DNA of 46,153 nt from a virus, in the UHGV virus genome UHGV-0219331; one strand, given 5' to 3'. The notes beneath the pieces were generated by a model. That model searched no databases. It saw nothing but the letters and a program-made list of their open reading frames with translations, and was not told where the DNA came from. Position numbers and translations under genes: made by a program. Positions 590 to 24,601 of the stretch are shown here, one piece after another. Numbering within the stretch: position 1 is the first letter of the stretch; every line of letters starts with the position of its first letter.

Positions 590-721
590 GTTGCATTTCC
601 TTTCATTCATAAGTGGGAACGGGGCGGCGGTCAGAAAGCCATGATTGAGCCGCCCCTTGTAACACCTCCGGCATCCAATACCGTGACATATCAGCCTGGC
701 CGGAGGAGGTAAAGCACCTTA

Positions 722-1477: not shown

Positions 1478-1495
1478 ACTTATCTCCTTTTCTTT

Positions 1496-1930: not shown

Positions 1931-1959
1931 TTACTCACCTCCTCCCACGCAAAGAATAT

Positions 1960-2854: not shown

Positions 2855-2869
2855 GGTATTTTCCTCCTC

Positions 2870-3742: not shown

Positions 3743-3750
3743 ATTGCCTC

Positions 3751-4026
3751 CTATTCCTCAAAAACAACGCCCATATCAGACAGGAACTCATAAATCTTAT
3801 CTTCAAGGGTCTGCTTATTCTGCATAGCCGACTGCTCTGCCTCTTCCTTACTACACTCAACAACAAATCCTTTCCTTTTAAGGCAGTCCGGGCATACATC
3901 AATGGTAATTCCGTTATATCCTACCCCCTTCATCCGGATTCCTTCTGACTGGATTGTTATCTTAGCCAGGTCATCCCGCCCCTTGCTCTGCTTACAGATA
4001 TCGCATGTATAAACTTCAGTCCTCAT
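3751..4026 (-). CDS. Small Cys4 zinc-finger protein
   Basis: CDIC...CPDC motifs, 91 aa. Confidence 0.4.
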   Translation of the reverse strand: MRTEVYTCDICKQSKGRDDLAKITIQSEGIRMKGVGYNGITIDVCPDCLKRKGFVVECSKEEAEQSAMQNKQTLEDKIYEFLSDMGVVFEE

Positions 4027-4034
4027 ATCCTCGC

Positions 4035-4688: not shown

Positions 4689-4848
4689 CCTGCCCACCTT
4701 CCCTTGCCATAATCCTCCCGCAGTAGGGACACGGTGTAATCTCCCCCAATAGGGACCAGGTCCGAAACCCACAGCTACAGTTAAGTACAAAAAACGGTGC
4801 CGTAATCTTTACCTGGCTGTCTGGGTACCGCTCTGGCCGGGGCATCAC
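4663..4848 (-). CDS. Small zinc-ribbon protein
   Basis: CSCG...CPYCG, 61 aa. Confidence 0.3.
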   Translation of the reverse strand: MMPRPERYPDSQVKITAPFFVLNCSCGFRTWSLLGEITPCPYCGRIMAREGGQDVGKQIHI

Positions 4849-5189
4849 ACCTTCTCCTTTTCCGCCAGGATTTCTTTGACATGGTCCATCATGTATTCAT
4901 TCGTTTCTTCTTTGACCAGTTTCTGGAACGTCATCATGGCCTTCAGGGTGGCATCTGCATTACCCTCGCAGTATTCCTTCAACATTGACATGATTGACTT
5001 CCCAAGGCACTCAATTACATAAGGGGGATTCATCCCCTCACCTATAATCGCGCACTGGGACAGGTGTCTGACTTGGCCGATGTTACTTTCCGCTTCATGG
5101 ATGCCAACTGCGAAAAGTAGCTTACATGGGTCTAACTCAGCATTAGTCTTAACTTCTCCGAAACTGCACTCGATTGTTCCTTTAACCAT
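4845..5189 (-). CDS. Hypothetical early protein
   Basis: 114 aa. RBS AGGAGGaaaaatcaATG upstream. Confidence 0.45.
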   Translation of the reverse strand: MVKGTIECSFGEVKTNAELDPCKLLFAVGIHEAESNIGQVRHLSQCAIIGEGMNPPYVIECLGKSIMSMLKEYCEGNADATLKAMMTFQKLVKEETNEYMMDHVKEILAEKEKV

Positions 5190-5313
5190 TGATTTTTCCT
5201 CCTGAATCCCTTATACTAAGGGTGATTAAATTTTATTAGTTTCCTTAATGCCGTTCGGTGCGCCAACACCTGCGGCATCTTTTTATTTCCGCGTTCATAG
5301 GCCCCACCTCCTC

Positions 5314-5511
5314 TCATATGATTATGTATCCGCCCCAGGTCAGTGCCAGCAGAACTGTGCTGATTACGGACGTAACCAATAATGCTGCATTCCATTTTCC
5401 CCTCTCCTTAAAGGCCCTGCGGCTCTCCCTAAGGCTACCTTTCAACCAGGCACATTTCTGCCTCAGTTCCTCATAGGTCGGCTCCTCCCGTGATGGCATC
5501 ACCTGTATCAT
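5314..5511 (-). CDS. Small membrane protein
   Basis: 65 aa with a C-terminal TM. Confidence 0.3.
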   Translation of the reverse strand: MIQVMPSREEPTYEELRQKCAWLKGSLRESRRAFKERGKWNAALLVTSVISTVLLALTWGGYIII

Positions 5512-5738
5512 TGCACTTGTCCTCCTTCTATTTCTTCAACAGCAGCGTCAATCTCTTTCATGGTTCTTCCCAGGTACTGGGCAACCAGATTCGTCTGTAT
5601 TACTATGTGCGCCCGCTTCCCATGCTTTTCGTAGATGCCTATGGGATACTTGCCAACCCTAACTTTCTCAATTAGGTAAGGCACATCAACGCCAAAGATT
5701 TTTGCTGCTGTTTTGGTTCTTATCCGGTTTGGACGCAT
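5508..5738 (-). CDS. Excisionase/MerR-like HTH DNA-binding protein
   Basis: AAKIFGVDVPYLIEKVRVGKYP is an HTH_17-like motif. It is the first gene of the leftward early operon after cro. Confidence 0.5.
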   Translation of the reverse strand: MRPNRIRTKTAAKIFGVDVPYLIEKVRVGKYPIGIYEKHGKRAHIVIQTNLVAQYLGRTMKEIDAAVEEIEGGQVQ

Positions 5739-5839
5739 CTCCTCTCACTCCTTTCTTACTATGTTGATTTTAATGCCTAGTTTACTGCTTTCCCTTCATG
5801 TGCTATACTTTTCTTAATTAATTGCAAAGGAGACCGGTT

Positions 5840-6181
5840 ATGAACCCACGCGATGAAAAAATCATTACTATAATTCATAAAAAACAACGATCTGACTATG
5901 AAAATTTTGTCCCCTTTGTCGTCATTCAACGCTCATTACCTTGGACAGATGGAACAGAACTCACAATTGATTTACTTAACCTGTCTGAACAGGGGTATCT
6001 GTGCGCAAAAAATCTTCCAACAGAATATTCTGGCTTTTGGTATGCTCTTACTGCTCAAGGAAATCGTGAATATGAACGCATTTTCTATGACAACACTGAA
6101 AAGAAAAAGAACCGAAATATACAAATTTTGAGTACTCTTATCGGTGTTGTTACAGGATTTCTCCTCGGAAAATTTTTTTAA
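5840..6181 (+). CDS. Hypothetical protein with C-terminal TM anchor (oppositely oriented moron)
   Basis: Start taken at the ATG 6 nt downstream of an AAAGGAGAccggtt RBS. AT-rich. Confidence 0.4.
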   Translation: MNPRDEKIITIIHKKQRSDYENFVPFVVIQRSLPWTDGTELTIDLLNLSEQGYLCAKNLPTEYSGFWYALTAQGNREYERIFYDNTEKKKNRNIQILSTLIGVVTGFLLGKFF

Positions 6182-6328
6182 AGCTTACTGGCAATTCCAA
6201 GTAACAAACCAATAATCACACTCAGTTCTGTAATTATGATTGTTGTTGAGTGATTTCTCATCCCTTCTTTTACTCCTTTTTTATTTGCTAACTTCCTCTG
6301 GTGTCATCCCCTCACTCCTTTAACGAAA

Positions 6329-6345
6329 ATTCAATTTAATTGGAT
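6329..6345. promoter_or_regulatory. Third copy of operator motif ATTCAatttaatTGGAT at the 3' end of the cro-like gene (OL-like?)
   Basis: Matches the extended consensus AAATTCAwTTTAwwTGGATTTTT shared with 6604-6629. Confidence 0.4.
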
Positions 6346-6566
6346 TTTTGGGGCAAAAAAATATAGTCTAATGGCATCTTGTAGAGTTCGCTCAGCTGCC
6401 TACTCTGCGACATTTTAGGCTCTGAGTTCCCTTTCTCCCAACTGACTATCGTCTGTTTTCCTACATTTAATGCCTTTGCTACTGCTTCTTGGGTCAATCC
6501 TGCATTTACTCTTGCGGCTGCTAAACTGATTTGAAACTCCGCCAACTTAATCACCTCACTTTCCAT
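6336..6566 (-). CDS. Cro-like XRE-family HTH regulator
   Basis: LTQEAVAKALNVGKQTIVSWEKG is an XRE HTH. It is divergent from the CI-like repressor and is served by the perfect promoter TTGACA-17-TATAAT. Confidence 0.7.
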   Translation of the reverse strand: MESEVIKLAEFQISLAAARVNAGLTQEAVAKALNVGKQTIVSWEKGNSEPKMSQSRQLSELYKMPLDYIFLPQKSN

Positions 6567-6571
6567 AGTGC

Positions 6572-6666
6572 CATTATAAATTCATTTTAATTGAATGTCA
6601 ATACTAAAATTCATTTTATATGGATTTTTAGTTGAAATTTATTTATTTTTATTGTATCATATAAGC
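6572..6666. promoter_or_regulatory. Cro/CI divergent switch: P(cro) TTGACA(6600-6595)-17-TATAAT(6577-6572) on the minus strand, P(cI) TTGAAA(6632-6637)-17-TATCAT on the plus strand, operators ATTCA-N7-TGRAT at 6579-6595 and 6608-6624
   Basis: Read directly. The operator palindrome sits in the spacer of the cro promoter. Confidence 0.6.
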
Positions 6667-6681
6667 ATGGAGGTACTTAAT

Positions 6682-7320
6682 ATGCCGGATGAAGAACAAA
6701 AAAAAATATTTGCAAAAAACTTAAATAGGTATCTATCCTTATCCAATAAAACACAAAAAGAAGTTGCCGATGCTATCGGTGTAATACCAAGTACGTTTAA
6801 TACTTGGTGTCAAGGTATAGCCTTGCCAAGGATGGGAAAAGTACAGGTCTTAGCTGACTATTTTGGTATAAATAAAACCGACTTAATTGATGAAAAATCT
6901 CCAATATCCATAAGTTCAAACAAAGGAATCATCATCAAGGTCCTCGGCTCCGTAGCGGCCGGCATCCCAATCAGCGCCGTTGAGGATATCATAGACGAAG
7001 AGGAAGTCACTGAAGACATGGCCCGCCAGGGAAATCTGTTTGGCCTGCGCATCAAAGGACATTCTATGGAGCCAAACATCTGTGATGGAGATACAGTCAT
7101 AGTCAAGGAGCAGCCTGATGCCGAAAATGGTGAGACTGTGGTTGTTCTAATCAATGGGGATGAGGCTACCTGCAAAAAAATATATAAGTATGAGGATGGG
7201 AGTATTCGTCTGGTACCAAACAATCCAGCATTCTCCCCCAAATTATATACACTGGATGAAATCAGTACATTACCAGTGACAATCGTTGGAAAGGTGATTG
7301 AGTTACGAAGGAAATTCTAA
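6682..7320 (+). CDS. CI-like prophage repressor (N-terminal HTH plus C-terminal S24 LexA-type peptidase)
   Basis: GGAGGtacttaatATG RBS. HTH QKEVADAIGVIPSTFNTWCQG. S24 Ser motif KGHSMEP and Lys motif ATCKKI. Confidence 0.8.
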   Translation: MPDEEQKKIFAKNLNRYLSLSNKTQKEVADAIGVIPSTFNTWCQGIALPRMGKVQVLADYFGINKTDLIDEKSPISISSNKGIIIKVLGSVAAGIPISAVEDIIDEEEVTEDMARQGNLFGLRIKGHSMEPNICDGDTVIVKEQPDAENGETVVVLINGDEATCKKIYKYEDGSIRLVPNNPAFSPKLYTLDEISTLPVTIVGKVIELRRKF

Positions 7321-7375
7321 ATATATAAAAAGCAATTGCTTTATATAAAAATTATTTACCGAGGAGGATAAAACT

Positions 7376-8086
7376 ATGGCACTAATCAAATGCCCAGAGT
7401 GTGGAAAAGAAATCAGTGATAAGGCAGCAACCTGTCCGAATTGTGGATGCCCAACAAATGAATCACCGAATAATGCCCAGACTCCACCATTAACAAATAC
7501 ATCGTCACCAACTGTGGCCAGAAAGAAGAAGGGGCATGGATGTCTTTTCTGTATTATTACTTTCTTTGCTCTATCAGCCTTTGTTGGGTTTTGGGCTTCC
7601 AAAGATAGTTCAACTGTTAAAAATGACAATGTAATTGAGTTCACTAAAGAAGATGCTGCAGACATAGACGATAAAGTCTGGGAAAACGTTGAGATTGCTA
7701 TCAAGGCAAATAATGTGATAGTAAATAATTTTGACAAGGCTCTATCTGGAGAAATATCCCTTGTAGACTATTATGATTCCTGTAAGGAGGCCTCAAAAGT
7801 TTTAGGCGGAAACTCAACCAAATTTCCTAAGTCAGACAATGACGGCGCCAAATCCTATATCCAGTCATCTACGCAATACGTTATACAGGTTCAAATTCTA
7901 TCTGATTCTGTAATAAAATACATTGACAAAGCAGAAACCAAAAATCTTTCAGCCGTTAAATCTAATATTGAACAGTGTTCTGAGTTAATAGCTGTCGTGG
8001 CTCAAAATCGGGGTGTGTTTTTAAGTACAAATGGCTTTACGGATGAAGAAATCAAGGAACGCGCTGAACAAATCTCTGTTGAATAA
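7376..8086 (+). CDS. Zinc-ribbon membrane protein (lysogeny-expressed moron, possible superinfection exclusion)
   Basis: RBS GAGGAGGataaaactATG. N-terminal CPECG...CPNCG ribbon, one TM (LFCIITFFALSAFVGFW) and a ~170-aa extracytoplasmic domain. Confidence 0.55.
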   Translation: MALIKCPECGKEISDKAATCPNCGCPTNESPNNAQTPPLTNTSSPTVARKKKGHGCLFCIITFFALSAFVGFWASKDSSTVKNDNVIEFTKEDAADIDDKVWENVEIAIKANNVIVNNFDKALSGEISLVDYYDSCKEASKVLGGNSTKFPKSDNDGAKSYIQSSTQYVIQVQILSDSVIKYIDKAETKNLSAVKSNIEQCSELIAVVAQNRGVFLSTNGFTDEEIKERAEQISVE

Positions 8087-8277
8087 TTAAATATCAAAAA
8101 GCCCCTGTGCTACCAACACAAGAGCTTTTAATGATACTATTGCCGGGCTGGAGCCACGGTATAATATCGGCCTCAACAACCATATTATATCATCTGGCAC
8201 CCATTCTGGCAATGGGTGTCTTTTTTATGCCCATTTTTAAGGACCGTTGCGATATCGCAACAGAAAGGATGATATAT

Positions 8278-9531
8278 ATGGCACTAATTCAATGTCCAGA
8301 ATGCGAGGGTAAGGTTAGTGACCGCGCCTCCTCCTGCCCACACTGCGGATTCCCGCTCAATACAACCGCTGCCCCTGCTCCTGCCCCAAAGCGTGGGCGC
8401 CCCAAAAAGCAGGAAGAGCCAGCGTTTCGGCTGCCAAATGGGTATGGAACCATCAGAAGATTAACAGGGAACCGTAGAAAGCCATACGTTGCCCTGGTAA
8501 ACCCTACACAGGTATTCAACGATGAAAAGGGAACCTCCCATTACAAATATGACCTGCTTGGGACCTTTGCGGAAAAAATAGATGCATATAATGCAGTCAT
8601 GCAGTATCACAAGAGTCCTGGAGGGCTGAACAGCAACATAACTGTCAAGGACCTATTTAATAAATGGGTTGAGCATCATATGCAGGTAAATAACTATCCT
8701 GATTCCATGCGGAAAAAATATGAAATGGAGTTTGCCTACTTGTCTCCTTTATACAAAATCAGGGTCCTGGATACCAGCCCGGCTACACTGAAAGAAGCAA
8801 TCGAGAATGCATCCAAAATTGGAACCCGTGGAAAAACCAAAGGACAGGTTGTTGCTGCCACGCCAAATATGAAAAGCAATATCAAAGGCCTACTGAATAT
8901 GATGTATGACCACGCCATATTTCTCCGCATCCTTACAGTAAACTATGCACGCACCTTTGAACTCAAATTCGATATCGTTCGCCGCGAGGGCCGCCCTTAC
9001 ACGCAGGCCGAAAGGGATATCCTATGGAGACATTCCGGAACCCTCTTTATAGACATGACCCTGGTGCAGTTCTATTCCGGCTGGCGCCCCAACGAGGTAC
9101 TTAACATCGGGATAGATAATGTGGACCTGCAAAACCGTACATTTACCAGTGGTTCCAAGACAGAAGCTGGAATCAACCGGACCATTCCCATACATTCAAA
9201 AATCATTCCTATAGTAGAGCATTACTACAAGGAGGCACATGATATAGGACGCAATGTACTATTTGGTCGTACAAGCCCACATAATGGCCAATATACTTAT
9301 ACAGACAATTCGTTCCGGTATGGCCTATTCAAAGACTTCGAGGAATTAGGAATCAAGGACCATGTGTTGCACGATGGCAGACATACATTTTCGACTATGG
9401 CAAAAGAAAATGGGGTAGATGACTTTGCCAGGAAAAAATTTATGGGACATAACATTTCAGACCTGACAGACCGGGTATATACACATTTAGATTTGGAGTG
9501 GTTCCGGACGGAGATAGAAAAGATAAAGTAG
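8278..9531 (+). CDS. int: Tyrosine integrase with N-terminal zinc-ribbon and AT-hook-like (GRPKK) segment
   Basis: Catalytic HDGRHTF...VYTHL (HxxR, Tyr). N-terminus MALIQCPECEGKVSDRASSCPHCGFP is paralogous to the 7376 product. Start ATG at 8278 chosen because the upstream ORF extension is not conserved. Confidence 0.8.
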   Translation: MALIQCPECEGKVSDRASSCPHCGFPLNTTAAPAPAPKRGRPKKQEEPAFRLPNGYGTIRRLTGNRRKPYVALVNPTQVFNDEKGTSHYKYDLLGTFAEKIDAYNAVMQYHKSPGGLNSNITVKDLFNKWVEHHMQVNNYPDSMRKKYEMEFAYLSPLYKIRVLDTSPATLKEAIENASKIGTRGKTKGQVVAATPNMKSNIKGLLNMMYDHAIFLRILTVNYARTFELKFDIVRREGRPYTQAERDILWRHSGTLFIDMTLVQFYSGWRPNEVLNIGIDNVDLQNRTFTSGSKTEAGINRTIPIHSKIIPIVEHYYKEAHDIGRNVLFGRTSPHNGQYTYTDNSFRYGLFKDFEELGIKDHVLHDGRHTFSTMAKENGVDDFARKKFMGHNISDLTDRVYTHLDLEWFRTEIEKIK

Positions 9532-9785: not shown

Positions 9786-9860
9786 CGAACGTTTGTTCTT
9801 ATCCCTATTGCATTCTCTATAGTTCTGTGCTAATATGAAAACATGCAGAACGTTTGTTCT
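9786..9860 (+). promoter_or_regulatory. recA SOS promoter: two Cheo-type LexA boxes (CGAACgtttGTTCt at 9786-9799, aGAACgtttGTTCt at 9847-9860) flanking sigma-A TTGCAT-17-TAATAT (9808-9836)
   Basis: Exact matches to the Firmicutes LexA box consensus GAAC-N4-GTTC, read directly from sequence. Confidence 0.8.
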
Positions 9861-9881
9861 TTTTCGAAAGGAGTTTACATT

Positions 9882-10895
9882 ATGGAGAATAGTTCAGACA
9901 AAATGGAAGCAATTGAAGATGCAATTGCAAAAATTGAAAAAGCATTTGGAAAAGGTACATTAATGAAATTAGGGGAATGTTCGCGTATGAACGTAGAAAC
10001 CTTCTCTTCCGGTTCTCTCGGCCTTGATATGGCATTAGGATGCGGCGGTGTTCCTAAAGGCAGGATTATAGAAGTCTATGGACCGGAGTCATCCGGTAAG
10101 ACCACGGTTGCCCTGCACATGGTTGCCGAGGTACAGAAGAGGGGCGGGATTGCAGGCTTCATCGATGCAGAGCATGCCTTTGACCCAGTATATGCCAGGA
10201 ATATCGGCGTGGATATTGACAACCTGTACATATCACAGCCAGATAATGGGGAGCAGGCTTTAGACATAGCAGAGAGACTAATATTATCCGGAGCCATGGA
10301 TATTATCATTATCGATTCAGTGGCTGCATTGGTTCCAAAGTCAGAAATCGATGGGGAAATGGGAGATGCCCACGTAGGTCTGCAGGCCAGGCTGATGTCG
10401 CAGGCACTCAGAAAATTGACTGCCATATTAAGCAGAAGTAATTGCACTATTGTATTCATTAATCAGCTCCGTGAAAAAGTAGCCACAAATTTCAGTGGTG
10501 GAAATAACGAGGTAACCACAGGGGGTAAGGCCCTTAAGTTCTATGCTTCTGTTCGGCTTGATATACGTAAGCAGAATATTCTGAAGCAAGGCACTGATAT
10601 TGTTGGGAACCATGTTAAGGTACGTGTAGTAAAAAACAAGGTGGCGCCCCCGTTTAAAGAAGCTGAATTTGATATTTTATTTGGGGAAGGAATTTCAAAG
10701 GAAAGTGAATTGCTCGAGATAGGTGTAAAACTGGGAATCATCGATAAGAGCGGATCATGGTACTCCTACGGTCAAACAAAATTGGGACAAGGCTCCGATA
10801 ATGTCCGGTTATTTTTAAAAGCTGATTCCGCGCTTGCAAACGAAATACAGGAACATATCGTTAATATGGATGCTGACAAAAAGAAATTAGCATAA
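9882..10895 (+). CDS. recA: Recombinase A
   Basis: Walker [11 protein letters not shown]1/L2 loops and the full RecA fold over ~338 aa. Start at MENSSD... after AAGGAG. Host-type SOS regulation. Confidence 0.95.
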
Positions 10896-11133: not shown

Positions 11134-11172
11134 GCGGGTCCGTTTAATCCGGATCCCGCCACTTTTTATCCT
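11134..11172. terminator. Bidirectional rho-independent terminator (GGCGGGTCCG-loop-CGGATCCCGCC followed by a T-run)
   Basis: 10-bp GC-rich stem with one bulge. T-rich tracts on both strands. Sits between the recA operon and the convergent integrase. Confidence 0.6.
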
Positions 11173-12083
11173 GCATCACGCTTATTTAAAAAATCAACAG
11201 CAATCTGCTGCATGCCTGGAGCAATATGTGTATATCGCATTGTCATATTGATATCCGAATGTCCAGCCCGGTATTGAATAACCGGAAGTGGCAAACCAGC
11301 ATCAACCAGCTCTGTTATGTGTGTATGGCGCAAATCGTGGAATCTCCCGCTTTCAATCCCTACTTTATTAAGCGTTTTGCGAAAGTATTTGACTGTATAC
11401 CACGGATTCATTTCTTTTCCGTATTTATCTTCAAATACCCATTCGCAAGTAGCCTTTACTTTCCTTTTCAAAAACATCTCTTCTATCTTTTTGTCAAACA
11501 TTATAGTTCTTTGAGAAGTTCTTGATTTTGGGCCATTAATAAAATATTCGTGCGGAGAAATTGCCACAATCGTTTGGTTGACTGTAAGTGATTTAAATTC
11601 AAAATCTATATCACTCCATTGCAGTCCAAAAATCTCCTCTTTCCGCATACCTGTATGATATGACAAGAGAATCATATCACCTAACCATTTAGGTCTTGCG
11701 GCTTCTATCATTACTTTTACTTCTCTCGGCGTGTAAACATAGTATTTTTTACTTGGGACACGCTTAAGCCTTTTTACCAAATCCATCGGATTATTTCTGA
11801 TAATCCCTTTGTTTTTAGCATATGTAAAGACGCCATTCAGAATTTCCAAGGCTTTATTGATTGAGTTGGCGCACAAAGGGCCTCCAGTCAAATGATTCCC
11901 GTGCTCCAATTCTTCTTGTATATATAAGTTGATATCGACATCAGTTATAGCATCAATATCCTTATCATCAAAATATGGTACAATGTGACATCGGATAGTC
12001 TCTGATTTGCGATAGAGTGTTATTTCTCGTTTATCAAAGACTTGTCCCGTCCACCATTGCTCCCTAACTTCCATAAATTTCAT
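11166..12083 (-). CDS. int: Tyrosine integrase (phage integrase family)
   Basis: C-terminal HDLRHTHITEL...GHSDINMTMRYTHI gives the R/HxxR/Y catalytic set. N-terminal SAM-like domain. Confidence 0.85.
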   Translation of the reverse strand: MKFMEVREQWWTGQVFDKREITLYRKSETIRCHIVPYFDDKDIDAITDVDINLYIQEELEHGNHLTGGPLCANSINKALEILNGVFTYAKNKGIIRNNPMDLVKRLKRVPSKKYYVYTPREVKVMIEAARPKWLGDMILLSYHTGMRKEEIFGLQWSDIDFEFKSLTVNQTIVAISPHEYFINGPKSRTSQRTIMFDKKIEEMFLKRKVKATCEWVFEDKYGKEMNPWYTVKYFRKTLNKVGIESGRFHDLRHTHITELVDAGLPLPVIQYRAGHSDINMTMRYTHIAPGMQQIAVDFLNKRDAG

Positions 12084-16339: not shown

Positions 16340-16786
16340 TTATCCATTAGGCCTGCGCCGTGTAATGCCTACATTATAACGCGGCCGCTCCGCGCCCCAC
16401 CACCAATACCGCAGCCAGTCATCCAGCACTATCCCGGCCAATGACACCGGCAACCAGAGCAGGCAGTATTGTGGGCATATCTGCCCCAGGACGTTGCCCG
16501 GAAGGCCGCTGTAGTCCCATACCCCCCAACCCAGCCACAGGTTGACGATGCACCCGGTCAGGAACTCCAGCGCCGTCACGATGCAGGCGCCGGTTAGTAT
16601 CTGCTGCCACAGGGGCATGTCCCAGGGCAGTACCTCATTGATTAGTCCCAACACCACGAAACAGATGCCGCCCAGAAGGAACATCGTCCAATGGCTCCTG
16701 CCGCGCCAGGCCATCTCCAGGATTATGTACAACAGCCCTCCGGTAGCCAGCAGGGCTGTATACTTGTTAATCCTTCGGTATCTCAT
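16340..16786 (-). CDS. Polytopic membrane protein (4 predicted TM)
   Basis: Start at MRYRRINKY after AGGAGGggcagaagATG. The track's N-extension was rejected. Confidence 0.5.
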   Translation of the reverse strand: MRYRRINKYTALLATGGLLYIILEMAWRGRSHWTMFLLGGICFVVLGLINEVLPWDMPLWQQILTGACIVTALEFLTGCIVNLWLGWGVWDYSGLPGNVLGQICPQYCLLWLPVSLAGIVLDDWLRYWWWGAERPRYNVGITRRRPNG

Positions 16787-17507
16787 CTTCTGCCCCTCCT
16801 GCCATAGCAGCAATCTCCACCAGATACGCCTGCAGTACATCGGACTGATACTGCTCCGGCACATCGGCGCCGTAGAATATCTCGGCCACCTCATCCGTGG
16901 TCTGGCAGCCAGCAATCCACATGTTAAGTGCATTACAGTACGTGGTGTGATAGGACACATGCCACATGGCCGCCTGGATAATGGCCTGCATGTCTGCCGC
17001 GCTGTAATACCTGCAGGGCTGCCCATCGGCGTGGTACTCCAGCTGCGTTGCCCCGGCAGTTATCTGGCTCAGCTTGCCGAACAGGTTAAGCTGGTCCTCG
17101 ATGGTCAGCGCATAATGCTCCACGCTGCCATCAGCCAACGCCACGTTGATACCGGCATAGATAAGCCGCTCACACTCCGCTGCCACCTCTCGGCGCTTGC
17201 CTACCTGCAGCTCCTCAAGTGTCGGGACATAAGGCTCCGGAGGCTCCCCTGGTCCATCCGGCGTCTCAGGCACCTGATACACGCTGCCATCATTGGACAG
17301 GTACACGGTCTGGCCATCGTCCCGATATACCGTGTCATACCCGGTCAGGGTTGCTGCCTCCGTGCCATCCTCGGTGTAGATGGCGATGTCTCCCCAGGAG
17401 ATGGGCACGGGGCCGGCAAACACAATCTGCATGACATTGGGAGACATGGGGCGGATACCCTTAATCTCATACAGCGGCTCATCCTTTCCTATTCTGATTT
17501 TTTCCAT
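16767..17507 (-). CDS. DUF4376/XkdW-like tail-fibre-associated protein
   Basis: Conserved AAECERLIYAGINVALADGSVEHYALTIEDQLNLFGK region. Follows the fibre module. Confidence 0.5.
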   Translation of the reverse strand: MEKIRIGKDEPLYEIKGIRPMSPNVMQIVFAGPVPISWGDIAIYTEDGTEAATLTGYDTVYRDDGQTVYLSNDGSVYQVPETPDGPGEPPEPYVPTLEELQVGKRREVAAECERLIYAGINVALADGSVEHYALTIEDQLNLFGKLSQITAGATQLEYHADGQPCRYYSAADMQAIIQAAMWHVSYHTTYCNALNMWIAGCQTTDEVAEIFYGADVPEQYQSDVLQAYLVEIAAMAGGAEDEIPKD

Positions 17508-17545
17508 GTTTTTACCTTCTTTCTGCATTTTTATGTATTATAAAA

Positions 17546-17560
17546 GGCCCTTGGAGGGCC
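17546..17560. terminator. Hairpin GGCCCttggaGGGCC with T-runs on both sides, bounding the shufflon on the left
   Basis: Seen in sequence. Confidence 0.45.
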
Positions 17561-17584
17561 TGAATTTTCGTTTTTGCTGTGTGT

Positions 17585-17863
17585 TATACCAATTTAACAG
17601 AGCGGTTTTCCAATAAAGTCTCTGACTGTAATTTCCTGACATATGGGAGAAGCGAGACAGTGGTAATTGGAATTTGGGATAACAGTACACTTAACACGCC
17701 ATATAAGCAGGCTGTTACTGGTTTTGGCAATGGGTTTATGATTGGCATGTCACTCGGAATAGAATGGTCTATTCAAATTGCCTTTGCTGTGTCTGATACA
17801 GATATCTTTGTTCGTAGTTATACCCTTGCTGGCATTGGATGGACTGGCTGGAGAACGATTTGA
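17585..17863 (+). other. Silent tail-fibre C-terminal cassette C1 (no start codon; begins at crossover site S1)
   Basis: The frame opens at ..YTNL encoded by TATACCAATTTA (17584-17596). ~90 aa. Confidence 0.6.
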
Positions 17864-17874
17864 TTATTTAGCAG

Positions 17875-18108
17875 CTATTGTAACAATCCGGTCCACGAAA
17901 CTTTCCATACGCCATCAATGTCCAGAAATCTTAATGTAATGCGTTTCTCACCATTAAAATAGAAATGTATTGCATAACCGGCGGTCATTGATACATCGTA
18001 ATATAGGCGGAAACCAAAGGATTTTTCAGCATCGTCAAAAAACGGTTGAACTAAGGCCACTTTGTCAAAATGGAATCTGGCATTAAGCCCTGCCAAATTG
18101 GTATTGCG
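17875..18108 (-). other. Silent tail-fibre C-terminal cassette C2 (begins at site S2, 18095-18108)
   Basis: Minus-strand frame ...RNTNLAGLNARFHF...WTGLLQ. Convergent, tail-to-tail with C1. Confidence 0.55.
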
Positions 18109-18163
18109 CCCATCAGTATAAATATTCAGGCAAAACTCAGTTTTATGCATTTTCCCTAGTGTG

Positions 18164-18463
18164 TTCAATACCAATTTAGCAGATGCAATAATCAAGTCTA
18201 CATATAAAACTGCTCTACGGTCACCCGATAAAACACATACCCTTGGTATCCATGATAACGGCACAGCATATATGGATGACACTAAGGTTATTACAAACTC
18301 GGATTTAGCTAATCGGTTAGTAATGAATACTGGAAGCACCGGGATACAGTCTCCCTTTTCAGGAAGTACATCACACAGGCTGCAAATTGGCATGGATGGA
18401 GGAGTTACTGTTTGGAAAACAACTGACGGCGGAACCACTTGGAATATCGTCAAAAATCTGTAA
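18164..18463 (+). other. Silent tail-fibre C-terminal cassette C3 (begins at site S3, 18166-18178)
   Basis: FNTNLADAIIKSTYK.... There is no ATG. The track used GTG. Confidence 0.6.
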
Positions 18464-18468
18464 GGTAA

Positions 18469-18708
18469 TCATTTTGTCCATATGTTAACCCAACTCCCAT
18501 GTTCTCTCCAATCAAAACCGATATTCACATTATCAAACCATAATGCCGCCACCTGTTCATCCGGGTCAGCATTATCGGTATAGTAAAAGATGATGCTCCT
18601 TCTTGGACCTGTGCCACTCTCGACTGTGTTGAATGATATGTATTTTACTGTGTTTTGAGTAGAGAATCTATATGTATGGTTCATGATATCTTTTAAATTG
18701 GTATAACG
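18469..18708 (-). other. Silent tail-fibre C-terminal cassette C4 (begins at site S4, 18694-18708)
   Basis: ...RYTNLKDIMNHTYRF...VNIWTK. Convergent with C3. Confidence 0.55.
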
Positions 18709-18841
18709 CCCTGAAGTCGTAAAATGTATCCTGCATAACAATTCCACGCAATTATAACTGTGCTCAACATTGCCTTTATACGTACAACAACTAAGCCTCC
18801 CGTCAGGCAGGCTTCAAAAAAAATCTATGTTATTTTAATCC

Positions 18842-19837
18842 TTATCCGGCAGCGTACATATCGTACTCATACTTCATCTTTCCGGCGCCGTTTTTGGCAT
18901 AGATACGCGTTGTCTCAACACTGGCATGTCCCATTATGTCACACAGTGTCGGCAGCGGCATCCCTTTATTCAGGGCGCGTGTTGCAAACGTATGCCGTAG
19001 CAGATGAGGAAATACCCGTTTTCCCAGCCCTGCCCGTTTTGCAATCCTGCGTATTATGTTCTCCAGGGCATTCTTCTTTAGGCCTTGATGCGGCGCCCGG
19101 CTGGAAAGTATGACTGGACCGCTGCGCCGGTCACCTAAATACTGCTCCAGATACTCAAGCGCCCGCTCTGAAAAGAATACTATCCGTTCTTTCTGTCCTT
19201 TTCCGATTACCTTCACATATCCTGCCTGTAGGTCAAGATTCCCCAAATCCATATTGACTACCTCAGATACCCGGCACCCAGTGGCCAGGAACAGCTCCAG
19301 CACTGCGTTATCGCGGATATTTGTGCCGCAGGCAATCCGCATCTTCTCCATTTCCCTTGGGCTCAGTGCTTCCCTTATCTCTGCCACATACTTAATAGGG
19401 TCCACAGTTGCCATAGGATTACGTCTGATATATCCCCGGTCATGCAGGAAAGCAAAGAAGGAACTGGCTATGCGCCGCTTATGGTCCTTTGTACTGGCAC
19501 TAATCTGACGTACTTGCTCATAGTAGTTCAGGCATTCCACCACATCCTCCCCCGTAATCTCCTGCACCGGCTTTCCCACATACACCAGTAGGTCTGTCAG
19601 GAAACGTTGATATTGATTGACTGTACTGGCCGAGTAATTCTCAAACCTCATTTTCCCTATGAATATATCCAATTCCGGGAAACTGATTACATTGGTGCTC
19701 AACCCAGTCTCCCTTTTGGCCACCTCATAGTTCCGGAGCACCGCTGACAGTGCCCCATCAATCACCTGTAGCGCAGGCCGTTCCAATTCATTGGACAGCC
19801 TGGCCATCAGTTCATCCTTCAGTCTTACTTCATCCAT
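18842..19837 (-). CDS. Rci/XerC-like tyrosine site-specific recombinase (candidate shufflon invertase)
   Basis: 331 aa. N-terminal SAM-like core-binding domain. Catalytic ATGCRVSEV, HLLRHTFATRAL and GHASVETTRIYAK supply R, HxxR and Y. Embedded between the cassette pairs. Confidence 0.8.
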   Translation of the reverse strand: MDEVRLKDELMARLSNELERPALQVIDGALSAVLRNYEVAKRETGLSTNVISFPELDIFIGKMRFENYSASTVNQYQRFLTDLLVYVGKPVQEITGEDVVECLNYYEQVRQISASTKDHKRRIASSFFAFLHDRGYIRRNPMATVDPIKYVAEIREALSPREMEKMRIACGTNIRDNAVLELFLATGCRVSEVVNMDLGNLDLQAGYVKVIGKGQKERIVFFSERALEYLEQYLGDRRSGPVILSSRAPHQGLKKNALENIIRRIAKRAGLGKRVFPHLLRHTFATRALNKGMPLPTLCDIMGHASVETTRIYAKNGAGKMKYEYDMYAAG

Positions 19838-19919
19838 TTAAATAACCCCTTTCCTTATGATTTTATGGTACTTTAATCATAAGCCAGGGGGCTTGATTTG
19901 GGCAATTTTCTTTACTGTG

Positions 19920-20468
19920 CGCAATACCAATTTGCCGTACAAATATCTAACGTCCTATAATGTACCCAATGGGGGAACATTACTGTCCGAGGTTGTGAGC
20001 GCACACAATGCCGGTTATAGATGTTTTATCGTCTACGCAATGGGCAATGTATTAGATGCGCCAAGTAATGCCTATGCGCAGGTACGTGTGACAAATGGCG
20101 ATAACCGATATATTGTCTGCGAGTGGATGAATGACAATGAGGCCAGAGGGTATGTTGCGAAGCGGATGATAGATACACAGACAATGCAATGGGCCGGTAA
20201 TTGGTCTGTTCCTGTCTTAAACTCGGATTTAATACACGGAAACACCGATGCATTTTCCATCCCTGCTAATTCTGAACGCCGTATTACTGTTGACCTAAGT
20301 CGATATAATGTAGGCACTAATTATCGTCTCTATGCTGTAGTTAGAGGGTCAACCTGGGCTAATGTAGGAGCCATATATTGCAATAATAACCAGACAATTA
20401 TTGATACTCGTAACCTCAATAGCACAGCTGTTAATATTTCACTTTGGTACACGATTATACGAAAATGA
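19920..20468 (+). other. Silent tail-fibre C-terminal cassette C5 (begins at site S5, 19917-19934)
   Basis: ...VRNTNLPYKYLTSYNVPNGG..., ~180 aa. Convergent with the expressed fibre gene. Confidence 0.6.
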
Positions 20469-21173
20469 TTATTTGGGGTATGTGCCGCTTACCCTAAAAA
20501 ATGCTATATTTCTGCCATCCGCTTGTAGCCGCATAAATGGACCAGTGTTGTCGCTTTCGTAAAACCAGATGACTTTGCCGGCTTTGACTCCATTAATGTA
20601 ATAAGCCATATCGGCGTTTGTGATAACATCGCCTTTTTTAACCCAGCTAGAGTCATTATCCGATGCGGATGTATATAGTGACACAATCCCCTTGTTTGAC
20701 ACATACAAGCGAGTTTTTTTCCCATCCGCATACAAGCTGTCAATTCCCGTAAAGGGATTTCCTTGGACTATTCTTTTTTCATAGTTCCCTAAATTGGTAT
20801 TGAGCACAGTATAAAGGTCCATCAAAGCCTTACCCTGTGCCGCCGAAAGTGGCAGTTTGGCATTATCCGTCACACAGTTGTTGACTATGCTGCCAATCAG
20901 GCAGACACCCGTCATCCAGTTCTTAGTATCCTCAAAAAATTTCTTGACCTTCCCCAGGAATGTCTTCGGCTTCTCACCGGCCACTGGGACCGGGAAGTCT
21001 GTGGTTATGTTATCCAGCGTCTTTACCGTCATCTCAGATATATCCCCACCGGAGGATTCTGCCTTCTTTTTCAGCGCTGCGTCTACCACATCTGCGTTGT
21101 CATTGAAATCCTGTATATCAACCGGGTCCGCACCTTCCGGCTTTTTCAGATTATAATTAGGTGTTAACTGCAT
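20469..21173 (-). CDS. Tail fibre protein: constant N-terminal anchor plus currently expressed variable C-terminal receptor-binding cassette
   Basis: Conserved fibre N-terminus MQLTPNYNLKKPEGADPVDIQDFNDNADVVD. Crossover site S6 (20790-20809) encodes LNTNLG, and the C-terminal ~105 aa are the variable part. Confidence 0.7.
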   Translation of the reverse strand: MQLTPNYNLKKPEGADPVDIQDFNDNADVVDAALKKKAESSGGDISEMTVKTLDNITTDFPVPVAGEKPKTFLGKVKKFFEDTKNWMTGVCLIGSIVNNCVTDNAKLPLSAAQGKALMDLYTVLNTNLGNYEKRIVQGNPFTGIDSLYADGKKTRLYVSNKGIVSLYTSASDNDSSWVKKGDVITNADMAYYINGVKAGKVIWFYESDNTGPFMRLQADGRNIAFFRVSGTYPK

Positions 21174-21176
21174 ATC

Positions 21177-21791
21177 CTATGCCTCCTTTAATGTCCTTAC
21201 GTCATCCCAGGTCATGTCCCCAAGACGGTTCCATGTATATGGTTTCAGTTCGTTCCATGTGGTGTATCGGTACTCAAACCGGTAGGCCAGATGCGCTGGC
21301 TTTATGTCCTCCAACATGGAGACAAATGCCTGCATGTTCCGCGGGATTCCTTTGATGCCAATAAACTGGATAATAAAAAAGTGATTGGGGTTATCCTCAA
21401 TCACCCTTACCTCCCCGCCTGAAAAGGCCGCGGCTGTATCCTCTATCATCTTCCGGGTTGTGGTCCCCTGGCCCCGGAACTTTGCCATGAGTATTTCCCG
21501 GCGCTGCTCATAGGTCAGGGACATGTTCGTGGCCACCCCCAGCATCTGCTCCCATCTGGACAGCCCCCAGGTGGCCGTCACGATATAGCATTGGTCAATC
21601 AGGTCCTCCAGGTCATGCTGCAGCTGCCCTACCTCATAGCCCTGTGTCCGGTATATCTCCGCCATTTCCCTGATTTCTGCCAGGAATGGCGGCGCATACC
21701 GCGCCAGGTCCACAAAATACTCCTCCGGGACAGTACTGCCTGAGCCCTCCTGGGCGTACTGGCTGCGGCCATATAATGTCTTCCCATACAT
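21177..21791 (-). CDS. DUF2313/XkdU-like (Mu gp48-like) baseplate-fibre protein
   Basis: 204 aa. Positioned between the baseplate J-side fibre and the shufflon fibre. Confidence 0.55.
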   Translation of the reverse strand: MYGKTLYGRSQYAQEGSGSTVPEEYFVDLARYAPPFLAEIREMAEIYRTQGYEVGQLQHDLEDLIDQCYIVTATWGLSRWEQMLGVATNMSLTYEQRREILMAKFRGQGTTTRKMIEDTAAAFSGGEVRVIEDNPNHFFIIQFIGIKGIPRNMQAFVSMLEDIKPAHLAYRFEYRYTTWNELKPYTWNRLGDMTWDDVRTLKEA

Positions 21792-21794
21792 GCC

Positions 21795-23552
21795 TTACAC
21801 CCCCTTCAGGTCATTCCATGTCAGCGCCGGATTACTGCCGGCTGTCACATGGCCCTGCGCATTGACCGTGACGCTCCGGTAGGTCCCGGCCGTCACCCCG
21901 CTGCTTGGATGGCTATATTTCGTATCAGGCGGTGTCTGCCAGATTCCATCCGCCCTTAAATATTTTGTCTGCGCCCCTGCTGCTGGGGCCGGGACCAGAC
22001 CAGTCCCGCCAGCGGCGCTTGAGGTGGCTGCCTTGAATACGGCATACGTGGTATTGTTATCTGTCCCCCACGCCGCAGTCCCATCAGCACTCCATCGTAG
22101 TATCTGCCCGCTGGACCCGCCGGAGGGGACGTGCTTATTCCCTGCCGTGGTGGGGTGCACATACTTATTGGCCCCCTCCGCAATCCCCGCCAGCTTATCT
22201 AACACGGCCTGGGTGATTTTGTCCAGTACCGTCTTATTCGCATGTGTGTGGTTCTGGCTGGTGTCCACATCCGCAGCAGTCAGGTAGCCGGAATCGTTCG
22301 TGAACTGTGACAGCTTTGTGGGCATGTCCGTAACCTGGCTTTTGGTATGGGTATGGGATGTCGGTGCCGCACCTGCCTGTGCAGCCGTCACACCATGAGG
22401 ATTACTCTTATTTCCTACATGTGTATAAGCGACACTCCAATTGTCCAGCAACGTCTGGGTAATCTTATCTATCACTGTCTTATTACTATGCTCATGGCGC
22501 TTGTTATAGGCGTCTGTCCAGTTGTTCAGCAAAATCTCTGTCAGCTTGTCCAGCACGTTCTTGTTTCCATGGGTGTGCTTCTTACTGCTCACATCAGCAA
22601 GTTCTGCCCTCTCCTCATCCGTATAATCATTGCTGGAGAGCTGTTTCCCGGCAACCTTATCAACCTTCCCTCCCAGGGCGGTCATGATAGTGGTTGCAAA
22701 ATTGGGGTCATTGCCCAGGGCGTCCGCAATCTCCCGGAAGGTATCCAATGTATCCGGCGCCGCGCCGATTAAATCCTCAATCTTTTTCAGGACTTCCGCT
22801 TTGGTGTATACCTGGTCTTTGGTATAACGGTTGCCCAGTTCCCGGTTTACGTCATCGACGTTGGCCTTTTTCTCCTCCAGTACAGTATCTGCGGCCCGTA
22901 AGGACTGTATTTCCAGGTTTACAGCGTCCGTATGCCCATCAATATTCTCCTGCAATACCCTTTCCGCTGCCTGTGCCCGGTTTGATTCAGTATTGATTGT
23001 GTCTGCATTTGCTTTCTCTGCGGCCTTCGCCCTGTCAGACTCAGCCTTAATAGACACGCTGTTTACCTGCTCAGCCTCCTTGGCCCTTTCTGCCTCTGTA
23101 TTAATACGGCCATCCAGACGGTCCTCCTCCTGCGTGGCGCGGTTTGTTTCTGCCCGCAGGTCATCTGTTAATTTCTTTTCTGCCCCCAGAGCGCGGCTCT
23201 CTTCTGCGTTCAGCGCCTCCTGTGTTGCAACGATGGATTCCTGCACCCGGTTGATGTCATCCCCCTCAACGGTATCCCCGTCAGTCTCATAGCTGATGTA
23301 GACCACCGGCGCATCCGCATACACCCGGACTATCCGTTTCCAGGGTGCCAGGCTGGGCGTTGACAGGGTATATGTTTCCAGGCGCTCCCCTGTCAGCTTC
23401 GGGCCGGTGAACACCGCGAAGGTAGCCTCATTGATGTTGTCATGCTGCAGCTCCGCCTCATACACACCATTGGTAAGGTGTATTTCCTCCTCCACGACAT
23501 AGATGCTCCCATCAACCTTATTCAGCTTATCGTAAAAGGTACTTACAATCAT
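21795..23552 (-). CDS. Tail fibre/spike protein with repetitive (HTH/NKTV-DK) and coiled-coil segments
   Basis: 585 aa. Repeats HGNKNVLDKLTEILLNNW / HSNKTVIDKITQTLLDNW / HANKTVLDKITQAVLDKL. Directly follows baseplate J. Confidence 0.6.
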   Translation of the reverse strand: MIVSTFYDKLNKVDGSIYVVEEEIHLTNGVYEAELQHDNINEATFAVFTGPKLTGERLETYTLSTPSLAPWKRIVRVYADAPVVYISYETDGDTVEGDDINRVQESIVATQEALNAEESRALGAEKKLTDDLRAETNRATQEEDRLDGRINTEAERAKEAEQVNSVSIKAESDRAKAAEKANADTINTESNRAQAAERVLQENIDGHTDAVNLEIQSLRAADTVLEEKKANVDDVNRELGNRYTKDQVYTKAEVLKKIEDLIGAAPDTLDTFREIADALGNDPNFATTIMTALGGKVDKVAGKQLSSNDYTDEERAELADVSSKKHTHGNKNVLDKLTEILLNNWTDAYNKRHEHSNKTVIDKITQTLLDNWSVAYTHVGNKSNPHGVTAAQAGAAPTSHTHTKSQVTDMPTKLSQFTNDSGYLTAADVDTSQNHTHANKTVLDKITQAVLDKLAGIAEGANKYVHPTTAGNKHVPSGGSSGQILRWSADGTAAWGTDNNTTYAVFKAATSSAAGGTGLVPAPAAGAQTKYLRADGIWQTPPDTKYSHPSSGVTAGTYRSVTVNAQGHVTAGSNPALTWNDLKGV

Positions 23553-24601
23553 CAGCCCACCTCCAGTGTGACCGTACCGGTCACCGCAATCTCATCCTCC
23601 ATCAGGGCCACATTGCCGGATACGCCGTTAAGCAGCAGGTTGGAATAATCCTCCACGCCCTCAGTCCCCAGCAGCAGGTTCCCTACCCTGGCCAGGCTCA
23701 CATAGGACAGGTCCAGGGCCTCATTGTGCAGGTAGTCTGTCAATGCCGCCTGGAATGCATTCTGGACAACCCCCAGGTTCATGCCTGCCTGCAGTTTGAT
23801 TCCAGCCGACACATTGACAGCCTTCTCCACGACAGATGCCACGGTCACATCCGCGCCAATGGGGCGCAGCTCCTCGATATGCTCCCGTACCATCTCCAAC
23901 AGGCCGGTACCGGCGGCGGACATGTTGGCGTCCGCTATGATGACCTTGACCGTCCCCGGTCCGCTGGACAGCGGGAAGACCTTGGCGGCCCCTACGCCCT
24001 CACACTCCATGGCCCAGTTGTAATAATCATACCGGTTGCCACTGGTGGAAGGCTTCTGTATTACATTCAACAGGCGTACCCTCAAAGCGTTGTCGCTTTC
24101 TTCTTCGGTGCCCGCCGAAAGAATTGTAGTTAACATTGCGGATGTCAGCCCTTGAGCATAGTCAATTGGGAGTAATTGTCCAGTATATGCATTTCCTATC
24201 TCCCCCTGCCTTTCACATTCCATGTCATATGTATGTGAGCCATCCAGGACTCCTATATATCCAACTGCCCTATATATGATGTGTTCTTCCTGTATTGCAG
24301 ATACCCTAAAACCAATCGGGACCTGGACATTGAAAATACCCTGCTTATGTGCATAGGTAGCGGGCTTTCGTGTAATTCCATATGCTTCAGCAATACGGTC
24401 AAGGCTCTCACCCCCTGCTGTTCCTGCATAGACATTGTCCTGTAATCGCTGCACGTCCATATATACCCCTTCAAGATACCAACTTACTGGCCCAAGGGCT
24501 GTCTGGATGATGGAGCCTTCCCTTTTGTCCAAATCATCAGGCACCCTGGACAGCTGGTCTGATAATATATTTGCATACGTTTTTCCACTAAAATCTATCA
24601 T
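23552..24601 (-). CDS. Baseplate J-like protein (Mu gp47/XkdT)
   Basis: 349 aa with the conserved Baseplate_J fold. Gene order is W-J-fibre. Confidence 0.7.
   Translation of the reverse strand: MIDFSGKTYANILSDQLSRVPDDLDKREGSIIQTALGPVSWYLEGVYMDVQRLQDNVYAGTAGGESLDRIAEAYGITRKPATYAHKQGIFNVQVPIGFRVSAIQEEHIIYRAVGYIGVLDGSHTYDMECERQGEIGNAYTGQLLPIDYAQGLTSAMLTTILSAGTEEESDNALRVRLLNVIQKPSTSGNRYDYYNWAMECEGVGAAKVFPLSSGPGTVKVIIADANMSAAGTGLLEMVREHIEELRPIGADVTVASVVEKAVNVSAGIKLQAGMNLGVVQNAFQAALTDYLHNEALDLSYVSLARVGNLLLGTEGVEDYSNLLLNGVSGNVALMEDEIAVTGTVTLEVG

Follow-up and report, generated by a model that had tools for sequence, protein, structure and literature searches.

How does a single tail-fibre gene come to end in many unrelated C-terminal domains? 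The question is raised by a locus in UHGV virus genome UHGV-0219331, a stretch of 46,153 nucleotides (nt) that is here called the window. The locus belongs to the tail module of a prophage with a contractile tail, whose host is an Enterocloster-type member of the Lachnospiraceae from the human gut, and it brings together six short repeats, one expressed fibre gene, five silent partial genes and a gene for a tyrosine recombinase. We conclude that it is very probably a multiple-inversion shufflon, driven by the recombinase embedded in it, that swaps the fibre tips of this prophage. A preliminary description made from the sequence alone had proposed a multi-cassette shufflon with a tyrosine recombinase, and the natural rearrangement products described below support it, with the embedded enzyme as the presumed catalyst.

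The repeats are far too numerous to be due to chance. A search of both strands of the 46-kilobase (kb) window with YAATACCAATTTR, allowing at most one mismatch, gives exactly six matches, three on each strand, compared with 0.46 expected; this is a 13-fold enrichment, and six matches were obtained in 0/100 shuffles. The orientation of the six cores (Table 1) strictly alternates between plus and minus, and five segments are bounded by them. Six cores of about 13 nt had been claimed before at these places, with S1, S3 and S6 given correctly and S2, S4 and S5 wrong by 1-2 nt. The shared core also stands, but not over all of the length first given: S1 and S4 have TTATACC instead of (C/T)AATACC, so that the truly invariant part, when all six are aligned in one orientation, is the 10-mer ATACCAATTT. 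To its left is the arm whose partial conservation had already been noticed, with the consensus tttaCTGTGCGCA, which extends the repeat to about 21-26 nt; to its right conservation is weak (R-C/G-A-G). Every core encodes T-N-L in frame, again as first described, and the end of the constant region reads AAT ACC AAT TTR, that is N-T-N-L. We also considered the sites as att sites of a prophage integrase and rejected this reading, as there are six of them within 3.2 kb of the tail module and a separate lysogeny module exists.

Table 1. Coordinates of the shufflon, its parts and its surroundings in the window.
Feature	Coordinates	Strand	Remarks
Core S1	17584..17596	+	Outer boundary, adjoins fixed flank
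Core S2	18094..18106	-	Pattern search and alignment
Core S3	18166..18178	+	Pattern search and alignment
Core S4	18694..18706	-	Pattern search and alignment
Core S5	19922..19934	+	Pattern search and alignment
Core S6	20790..20802	-	Expressed junction of constant region and active cassette
Segment A	17597..18093		Invertible; cassettes C1 and C2
Cassette C1	17597..17863	+	88 residues, segment A
Cassette C2	17875..18093	-	72 residues, segment A
Segment B	18107..18165		59-nt cassette-free spacer; two back-to-back left arms
Segment C	18179..18693		Invertible; cassettes C3 and C4
Cassette C3	18179..18463	+	94 residues, segment C
Second-level site AAACTCGGATTTA	18295..18307	+	Inside C3, at domain boundary; encodes NSDL
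Cassette C4	18469..18693	-	74 residues, segment C
Segment D	18707..19921		Invertible; recombinase gene inside; left arm at each end
Recombinase	18842..19837	-	331 residues, Xer-like tyrosine recombinase, putative shufflon invertase; between S4 and S5
Promoter-like TTGCCC-18-TATGAT	19876..19905	-	Upstream of recombinase, within the 84 nt that separate its start from S5
Segment E	19935..20789		Invertible; cassettes C5 and C6 tail to tail
Cassette C5	19935..20468	+	177 residues, silent, segment E
Second-level site AAACTCGGATTTA	20219..20231	+	Inside C5, at domain boundary; encodes NSDL
Cassette C6	20469..20789	-	106 residues, currently expressed, segment E
Full current fibre gene	20469..21173	-	234 residues; S6 at residues 126-128
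Constant 5' part of fibre gene	20803..21173	-	Residues 1-~124; with S6, a 128-residue N-terminus ending ...LYTVLNTNL
Terminator-like hairpin, bidirectional	17545..17561		AGGCCCTTGGAGGGCCT with flanking T-runs; pattern match; between S1 and DUF4376 gene start
DUF4376 protein	16767..17528	-	Pfam PF14301 (1.8e-10); PHROG 1348 'tail fiber protein' (5e-7); fixed downstream flank
Mu Gp48-like protein	21177..21791	-	Pfam/PHROG; fixed tail gene
585-residue fibre-like protein	21795..23552	-	Pfam/PHROG; fixed tail gene
Baseplate_J protein	23552..24601	-	Pfam/PHROG; fixed tail gene
Lysogeny module	6595-9531	+	S24/helix-turn-helix (HTH) CI-like repressor, Zn-ribbon protein, 474-residue integrase (8107-9531)
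Third tyrosine recombinase	11166-12083	-	305 residues; lysis end of prophage follows

What do these sites separate? The fibre gene, whose ATG is preceded by the ribosome-binding site AAAGGAGG, is crossed by S6 just where the preliminary description had put it, between the N-terminal anchor and a C-terminal part then given as about 105 residues, which is cassette C6. Start-less open reading frames (ORFs) of 72-177 residues open at the five other sites. The six cassettes are mutually unrelated in sequence and are arranged as three convergent pairs, in which 0-11 nt separate the two stop codons; the first account of the layout is borne out here as well. Scans of C1, C2, C3 and C5 against Pfam and PHROG gave no match. 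There are no terminators between the convergent cassettes, and transcription of the fibre gene would thus run antisense through the silent cassettes as far as the hairpin beyond S1. In the present arrangement gene callers also list P0122, an ORF of 203 residues (19857-20468, plus strand) that starts at an ATG in the left arm of D and continues across S5 into C5; it lacks a recognisable ribosome-binding site and is probably not expressed. Comparable spurious ORFs (P0123 and P0125) arise from other left arms.

The evidence for inversion comes from public assemblies. A search with the 234-residue protein finds more than 2000 homologues in which the first ~128 residues are conserved (invariant or nearly so across the 42 homologues aligned) and the C-termini are unrelated and of varied lengths. 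Natural fusions of the constant N-terminus with other cassettes, as expected if inversion exchanges the C-terminus, are among the proteins found. In P0003 the constant region is joined to C2, and in P0004 to C3, with both parts identical to the window in each case; P0003 occurs in 46 collection blocks. P0014 joins a constant region with two substitutions to an identical C4, P0072 combines a variant constant region with a C1-like cassette, and a gene of 216 residues joining the constant region to C1 is called in three loci (L009, L012 and L017; L numbers denote comparison loci). The fusions with C2 and C4 are those for which secondary inversions had been invoked.

Whole loci tell the same story. 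Contigs encoding the fusion proteins or the exact recombinase were collected and their loci cut at the 10-mer, the pieces being clustered; this gave 24 arrangements, 23 loci and the window, which we compare in tail-gene orientation. The window has the order E+ D+ C+ B+ A+, L014 has E+ B- A+ D+ C- and L016 has C+ D+ E- B+ A-. The three share all five segments at 100% identity, and the flanks differ from those of the window at 0 positions in 7.0 kb (L014) and 0 in 3.9 kb (L016). Four orders are seen of a second set of segments, {A, D, I, B, G} (L002, L009, L012 and L017), and two of a third, {H, D, J, B, K} (L011 and L013), one of which is from an isolate assembly of Dorea longicatena. Throughout the 24 arrangements the cores alternate in orientation, the cassette segments occupy odd positions and B and D even positions. 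This regularity is what one would predict if inversion between alternating sites of opposite orientation were the only operation. Within this rule the segments move freely: E is seen as E+ and E-, at positions 1 and 3, and B in both orientations, at positions 2 and 4. Segment D, found only at even positions (2 or 4, the latter in L014), is inverted relative to the flanking tail or lysis genes in L018 and L114; the recombinase gene thus lies inside the invertible region, as had been supposed. At the level of single junctions, 9 left arms and 16 right arms are seen in 55 combinations with the breakpoint always within ATACCAATTT; 26 of the 36 window-type junctions between left arm and cassette are present as exact 42-nt strings, and the constant arm is joined in public contigs to all six cassette starts.

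Could the same diversity belong to a static mosaic, in which the repeats are merely a linker-coding motif and variety comes from occasional homologous recombination between phages? The junction motif (V)LNTNL and an internal ITN(A/S)DL are conserved across the more than 2000 homologues, as such a motif might be, and horizontal exchange does happen, as segment E is found behind an unrelated N-terminus (see below). Flanks without a difference around different signed permutations of identical segments are hard to obtain in this way, however, and neither start-less, opposed, silent cassettes between alternating sites, nor a parity rule kept in 24/24 arrangements, nor an embedded recombinase would be expected. 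We consider the static mosaic very improbable.

We regard it as extremely improbable that the permutations are artefacts of assembly across short inverted repeats. The suspicion arises because the comparison loci are short-read assemblies throughout and their contigs often break at the cores. The repeats, however, are 10-26 nt long, compared with assembly k-mers of 119 and 141 according to contig names, and Logan assemblies use k = 31; every junction is thus read-supported, since reads spanning the repeat are needed, and the same junctions recur in independent samples and with independent assemblers. A mixed population would, moreover, itself give breaks at the cores. Contigs that stop there leave truncated gene calls of 124-137 residues in the fibre's own cluster, 13 of 68 IMG/VR contigs break off no more than 150 nt from the constant end, and for 529 of the 824 collection blocks that bear the recombinase the longest contig carrying it is shorter than 2 kb. 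These breaks are strong, if indirect, evidence of heterogeneity within samples.

Some loci are shorter. L003 consists of A only and L001 of A-B-F, while L004, L010 and L015 have three segments; L110 and L113 are also short. The recombinase is lost in L001 and L003, and the L001 type recurs in independent contigs, with 5 further similar places. These loci look like deletions between directly oriented cores, those without recombinase being 'frozen', although some may be chimeric assembly paths.

Which enzyme catalyses the inversions? The 331-residue protein encoded in segment D has a Phage_integrase domain (PF00589, 5.8e-38, residues 158-316) preceded by a SAM-like core-binding domain (PF13495, residues 56-134), and Pfam detects no arm-binding domain of the lambda-Int type. 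Its best NCBIfam models are XerA, XerC and XerD, each below the curated cutoff, and no Rci-specific match was seen in that scan. Alignment with XerA (5hxy) and XerD (1a0p) shows all six catalytic residues to be conserved (R189, K216, H278, R281, H304 and Y313). The exact protein is found on 459 contigs and indexed in 824 collection blocks, under the public annotation 'integrase' or 'XerD'. It is not the prophage integrase, since the window has a separate lysogeny module with a 474-residue integrase and a CI-like repressor. A serine-invertase reading was also rejected, given that the embedded enzyme belongs to PF00589 and that no serine recombinase is present among the 39 window ORFs scanned. 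The promoter-like sequence upstream (Table 1) suggests that the gene may carry its own promoter when segment D flips; promoter-consensus matches in the region are not enriched relative to shuffles.

From its sequence and position, this recombinase is most likely the catalyst of the inversions. The rearrangement might instead be real and due to another enzyme, whether a Xer-type recombinase of the host, one of the other tyrosine recombinases in the window or an enzyme of a co-resident prophage, with the embedded gene otherwise employed. Many IMG/VR relatives indeed have a constant-end site and an inverted copy 500-800 nt away with no recombinase homologue within 5 kb, L001 and L003 have none, and there are two further tyrosine recombinases in the window. 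In every full-length locus, however, the recombinase gene lies between two cores, and across relatives 79-89% identical it covaries with the central 7 nt of the site; the gene at 8107-9531, beside the CI-like repressor, has for its part a setting typical of an integrase. Catalysis by an enzyme other than the embedded one is therefore decidedly unlikely.

The relatives just mentioned also suggest which part of the site is exchanged. Recombinases of 79-89% identity occur in Enterocloster citroniae DSM 19261, in Clostridium sp. AM58-1XD and in several metagenome-assembled genomes. Their systems share the segment architecture of the present one, retain the left arm TGTGCnCAATA and differ, system by system, in the next 7 nt: CCAATTT in the window, CGGATTT in E. 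citroniae DSM 19261 (L030), GTGATTT in L026, GTAATTT in L028 and CCAAGCT in L031. Because a conserved, protein-binding arm thus adjoins a system-specific stretch common to partner sites, strand exchange can probably be placed in the ~7 nt to the right of the left arm, which would be the overlap. L028 and L031 have two sites and a single invertible segment, which in L031 includes the recombinase. The equivalent of spacer B, ~62 nt long, is kept in the diverged L030 and L026. L030 (NZ_JBEPLZ010000005.1, 4387-7459) has six sites and belongs to the type strain of its species, so that the system is experimentally accessible.

In the mechanism that we propose, the recombinase would bind the conserved left arm, and strands would be exchanged in the CCAATTT that follows, between any two inverted sites, so that the intervening DNA is turned round. 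Any block made up of an odd number of segments could flip in this way. Segments A, C and E would each supply two cassettes lacking promoter and start codon, and D and B would supply back-to-back left arms. The outcome would be 3! x 2! x 2^5 = 384 arrangements and six in-frame fibre variants built on the constant 128-residue N-terminus, the predicted baseplate or fibre anchor; two further variants would arise by rare reciprocal exchange at a second site in C3 and C5.

More distant relatives are plentiful. The IMG/VR loci L034-L109 show the fibre anchor family to be large and diverse, down to 41% identity, with varied junction cores (for example CAATACCAAGAT, CAATACTAATTT, AATAGTGATTTAG and AATTGTATAGTGAT). 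Nearly all have an inverted copy of the core 500-800 nt downstream; some encode recombinases 28-31% identical to that of the window, and many have none within 5 kb. In INPHARED, tblastn with the constant region gave no match and the recombinase found matches of at most 36% identity, implying that no phage record in that collection carries the system. The two best phage matches there are in cultured phages of Clostridia, Clostridium phage phiCp-D (L024, MW478291, 21639-22616) and Terrisporobacter phage TPELB_ph1 (L025, PP197244, 17645-18640), where a Xer-like recombinase 32-36% identical, annotated 'integrase', lies between the last tail or fibre gene and the holin. TPELB_ph1 has a separate integrase as well, and neither locus shows convincing inverted repeats.

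Is the protein that varies a receptor-binding fibre? The suggestion that the cassettes resemble fibre tips was checked by structure prediction on C5 and on the active full-length fibre; the C5 model is fibre-tip- or lectin-like, and the full-length model was poor. The C5 model has a predicted local distance difference test (pLDDT) score of 76.6, rising to 83-92 in its distal domain. Its best Foldseek matches in the PDB are a phi812 baseplate chain, the R1 and R2 pyocin fibre tips, the Mu fibre and H-type lectins, and in BFVD tail-fibre proteins and an H-type lectin domain, with E-values down to 6.5e-7 and root-mean-square deviations of 2-3 Å over single domains; template modelling (TM) scores for the whole model are low. 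Pfam H_lectin is present in some sister cassettes, and the 234-residue protein has PHROG tail-fibre matches. The putative receptor-binding role is thus well supported, and the variants would presumably recognise different receptors on the host surface, with a change of host range as the result.

The shufflon might nevertheless act on something other than a receptor-binding fibre, as in antigenic variation of an exposed baseplate protein or escape from a host defence that senses the tip. We think this unlikely, although the 234-residue protein falls in no curated family, the gene of a separate 585-residue fibre-like protein lies upstream and little confidence attaches to the full-length model. 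The position of the gene after that for the Gp48 homologue, which is the slot of fibre gene S in phage Mu, points to a fibre, as do a weak Phage_fiber_rpt match, the PHROG matches and the resemblance of C5 to R-pyocin and Mu tips, the phi812 baseplate and H-type lectins; sister cassettes with H_lectin domains have a parallel in the Rin system of Eggerthella (PMC8778435).

A further kind of exchange is seen inside two of the cassettes. The repeat AAACTCGGATTTA, 13 nt long and direct, marks a domain boundary in both C3 and C5, and all four combinations of left and right parts of these cassettes exist in public contigs, the hybrids being found in L001, L019 and L020-L023. L019 has both reciprocal recombinants and neither parent, which agrees with an inversion within one molecule in which C and E pointed opposite ways, as in L016. 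At its centre AAACTCGGATTTA has CGGATTT, identical to the crossover sequence of the E. citroniae type of shufflon, and by our own count the C5 copy matches the primary site of that type at 16 of 22 positions. The shufflon could on this evidence have two tiers, CCAATTT serving to swap whole cassettes and the AAACTCGGATTTA sites in C3 and C5 to swap distal tips, through the same recombinase or that of a co-resident sister system. This is possible but doubtful. The hybrid loci with enough flank (L001, L019, L020 and L021) have the same five single-nucleotide polymorphisms there, which weakens the case for a frequently used second tier. Judged by these shared flanks, the exchange of tip domains between C3 and C5 was probably a single rare event and not a routine tier. 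On the same reading, with whole cassette pairs also passing between shufflons that have unrelated anchors and near-identical cores (L033, below), the site would act as a portable dock for receptor-binding modules from a pool shared across the gut.

Whole segments also change context. In L033 (680-800 and 1560-1656) segment E, 99% identical, stands behind an unrelated N-terminus (MNNIENIQEY...AINDLNSNL) at a core, AATAGCAATTT, one base off that of the window. Cassette pairs therefore move between shufflons, apparently horizontally.

Several observations weigh against the shufflon as we describe it. The full-length fusion of the constant region with C5, which would have 305 residues, was not found; only a hybrid of the constant region with C5a-C3b is seen. 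As the comparison loci are from short reads, the order of a whole locus may be a chimeric path through a mixed population. The evidence is from assemblies, switching inside one clonal population was not observed, and no sample contained two alternative fusions among up to 10 samples each for the constant region with C6, C3 and C2, together with those of the collected contigs. Two more tyrosine recombinases are encoded in the window (8107-9531 and 11166-12083). For the fibre itself, the AlphaFold2 model of all 234 residues, built with 42 homologues, has a pLDDT of 48 and was left out of the fold search, and no curated family identifies a fibre, the Pfam Phage_fiber_rpt match (21.3 bits) being below cutoff.

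The surroundings of the locus are those of a contractile-tailed prophage. The minus-strand genes upstream encode terminase, portal, capsid, sheath, tube, tape measure, Baseplate_J, the 585-residue fibre-like protein and the Mu Gp48 homologue, the last directly followed by the variable gene. Downstream are the DUF4376 protein, which is possibly fibre-associated, holin-like genes and a lysin. A full-length RecA gene (9843-10895, plus strand; Pfam RecA, 438 bits) lies between the lysogeny module and the 305-residue recombinase, and RecT, DUF1351 and YqaJ early genes are at 1-5200. In L018, too, recA adjoins the lysis end. Either a host recA is flanked by the ends of one prophage or of two, or recA belongs to a phage genome, of which the contig is a permuted form.

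What would such a system mean for these phages? Temperate phages of the Lachnospiraceae are abundant in the human gut, and their host-range biology is almost unknown. The prevalence of the system (824 blocks, 459 contigs and more than 2000 homologues with diverse tips) implies that tip-switching may be a common way to track variable cell-surface glycans. The shufflon would also explain why metagenome assemblies of these prophages break up at the fibre gene, and with a site of 26 base pairs (bp), an enzyme of 331 residues and tips of 70-180 residues it offers a compact scaffold for engineering the host range of gut phages.

How does the locus compare with known switching systems? The Mu G, P1 C and p15B Min switches use serine recombinases with an enhancer and Fis, change host range and, in Min, have six sites. 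As in these and in Pin, inversion here switches the C-terminus of a tail fibre, and the variable gene follows a gp48 homologue as gene S does in Mu; in contrast, the recombinase is a tyrosine enzyme, and the cassettes lack a cassette-specific chaperone gene such as U/U' of Mu. The shufflon of R64 and other IncI1 plasmids, in which Rci acts at sfx sites on PilV, the adhesin of a conjugative type IV pilus, and no invertible segment contains rci, is closer in layout. It shares with our locus more than two sites, a tyrosine recombinase, segments of two opposed cassettes, a single constant N-terminus and conservation of one arm of the site. With its convergent pairs and tyrosine enzyme, and no serine recombinase found in the ORFs scanned, the locus is R64-like and not of the serine-invertase type, as the preliminary description had argued. 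It differs from R64 in having its target in a phage tail operon instead of a pilus adhesin, and in a recombinase that scores best against Xer models and lies inside a segment. In the hsdS shufflons, for example pneumococcal SpnD39III with CreX, a tyrosine recombinase exchanges the target-recognition modules of one expressed gene for those of silent, partial ones; the target protein and its role are different there, the repeats are usually longer and intragenic, and two recognition domains are swapped.

The closest precedent is the Rin shufflon of Bifidobacterium breve and B. longum prophages, presented by its discoverers as the first tyrosine invertase known to be encoded by a phage (Mavrich et al. 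2018; PMC6109161). Its receptor-binding protein combines a constant part with C-terminal cassettes of 95-100 residues; the site, rix (TTCCCTAACCC), is asymmetric and 11 bp long, and the enzyme is Xer-like and armless (PMC6109161). The system was later seen in Eggerthella lenta prophages, with cassettes that include H-type lectin domains (PMC8778435). The likeness to the present locus is extensive. Both have a phage-encoded Xer-like tyrosine recombinase with no arm-binding domain detected, a constant N-terminal part with several start-less C-terminal cassettes (about 70-180 residues) and short asymmetric crossover repeats in frame at the boundary of constant and variable parts; both are from temperate phages of the human gut, include H-type lectin cassettes and have inversions deduced from near-identical phages. 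The differences are in host, site and layout. The host here belongs to the Bacillota (Lachnospiraceae), whereas Rin hosts are Actinomycetota, and the tail is contractile (sheath, Baseplate_J, Mu Gp48). The site, ATACCAATTT with the left arm TGTGCnCAATA, is unrelated in sequence to rix. Rin lies at one end of tandem Rv genes, whereas here the recombinase is in a mobile, flipping segment and the cassettes are convergent. Mavrich et al. raised the question of how a tyrosine invertase that has no arm-binding domain comes to prefer inversion to deletion (PMC6109161), on which the apparent natural deletion derivatives, including the recombinase-less 'frozen' loci, now bear.

We conclude that this locus and Rin are the same kind of system; a claim of common lineage is set aside, the two being compared by site and layout. 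The earlier statement that no tyrosine-recombinase fibre shufflon of this layout was known in a Firmicutes myovirus is only partly right: a system of the kind has been described as Rin (PMC6109161, PMC8778435), whereas the setting in a contractile-tailed phage of Firmicutes and the layout appear undescribed, our literature search having found no account of such a system in phages of Lachnospiraceae or Clostridia. The kind of system is thus not new, nor is the locus categorically so; the features that appear undescribed are the embedding of the recombinase in a moving segment, the R64-like convergent pairs of fibre cassettes, and the rare reciprocal exchange at a second site within two of them.

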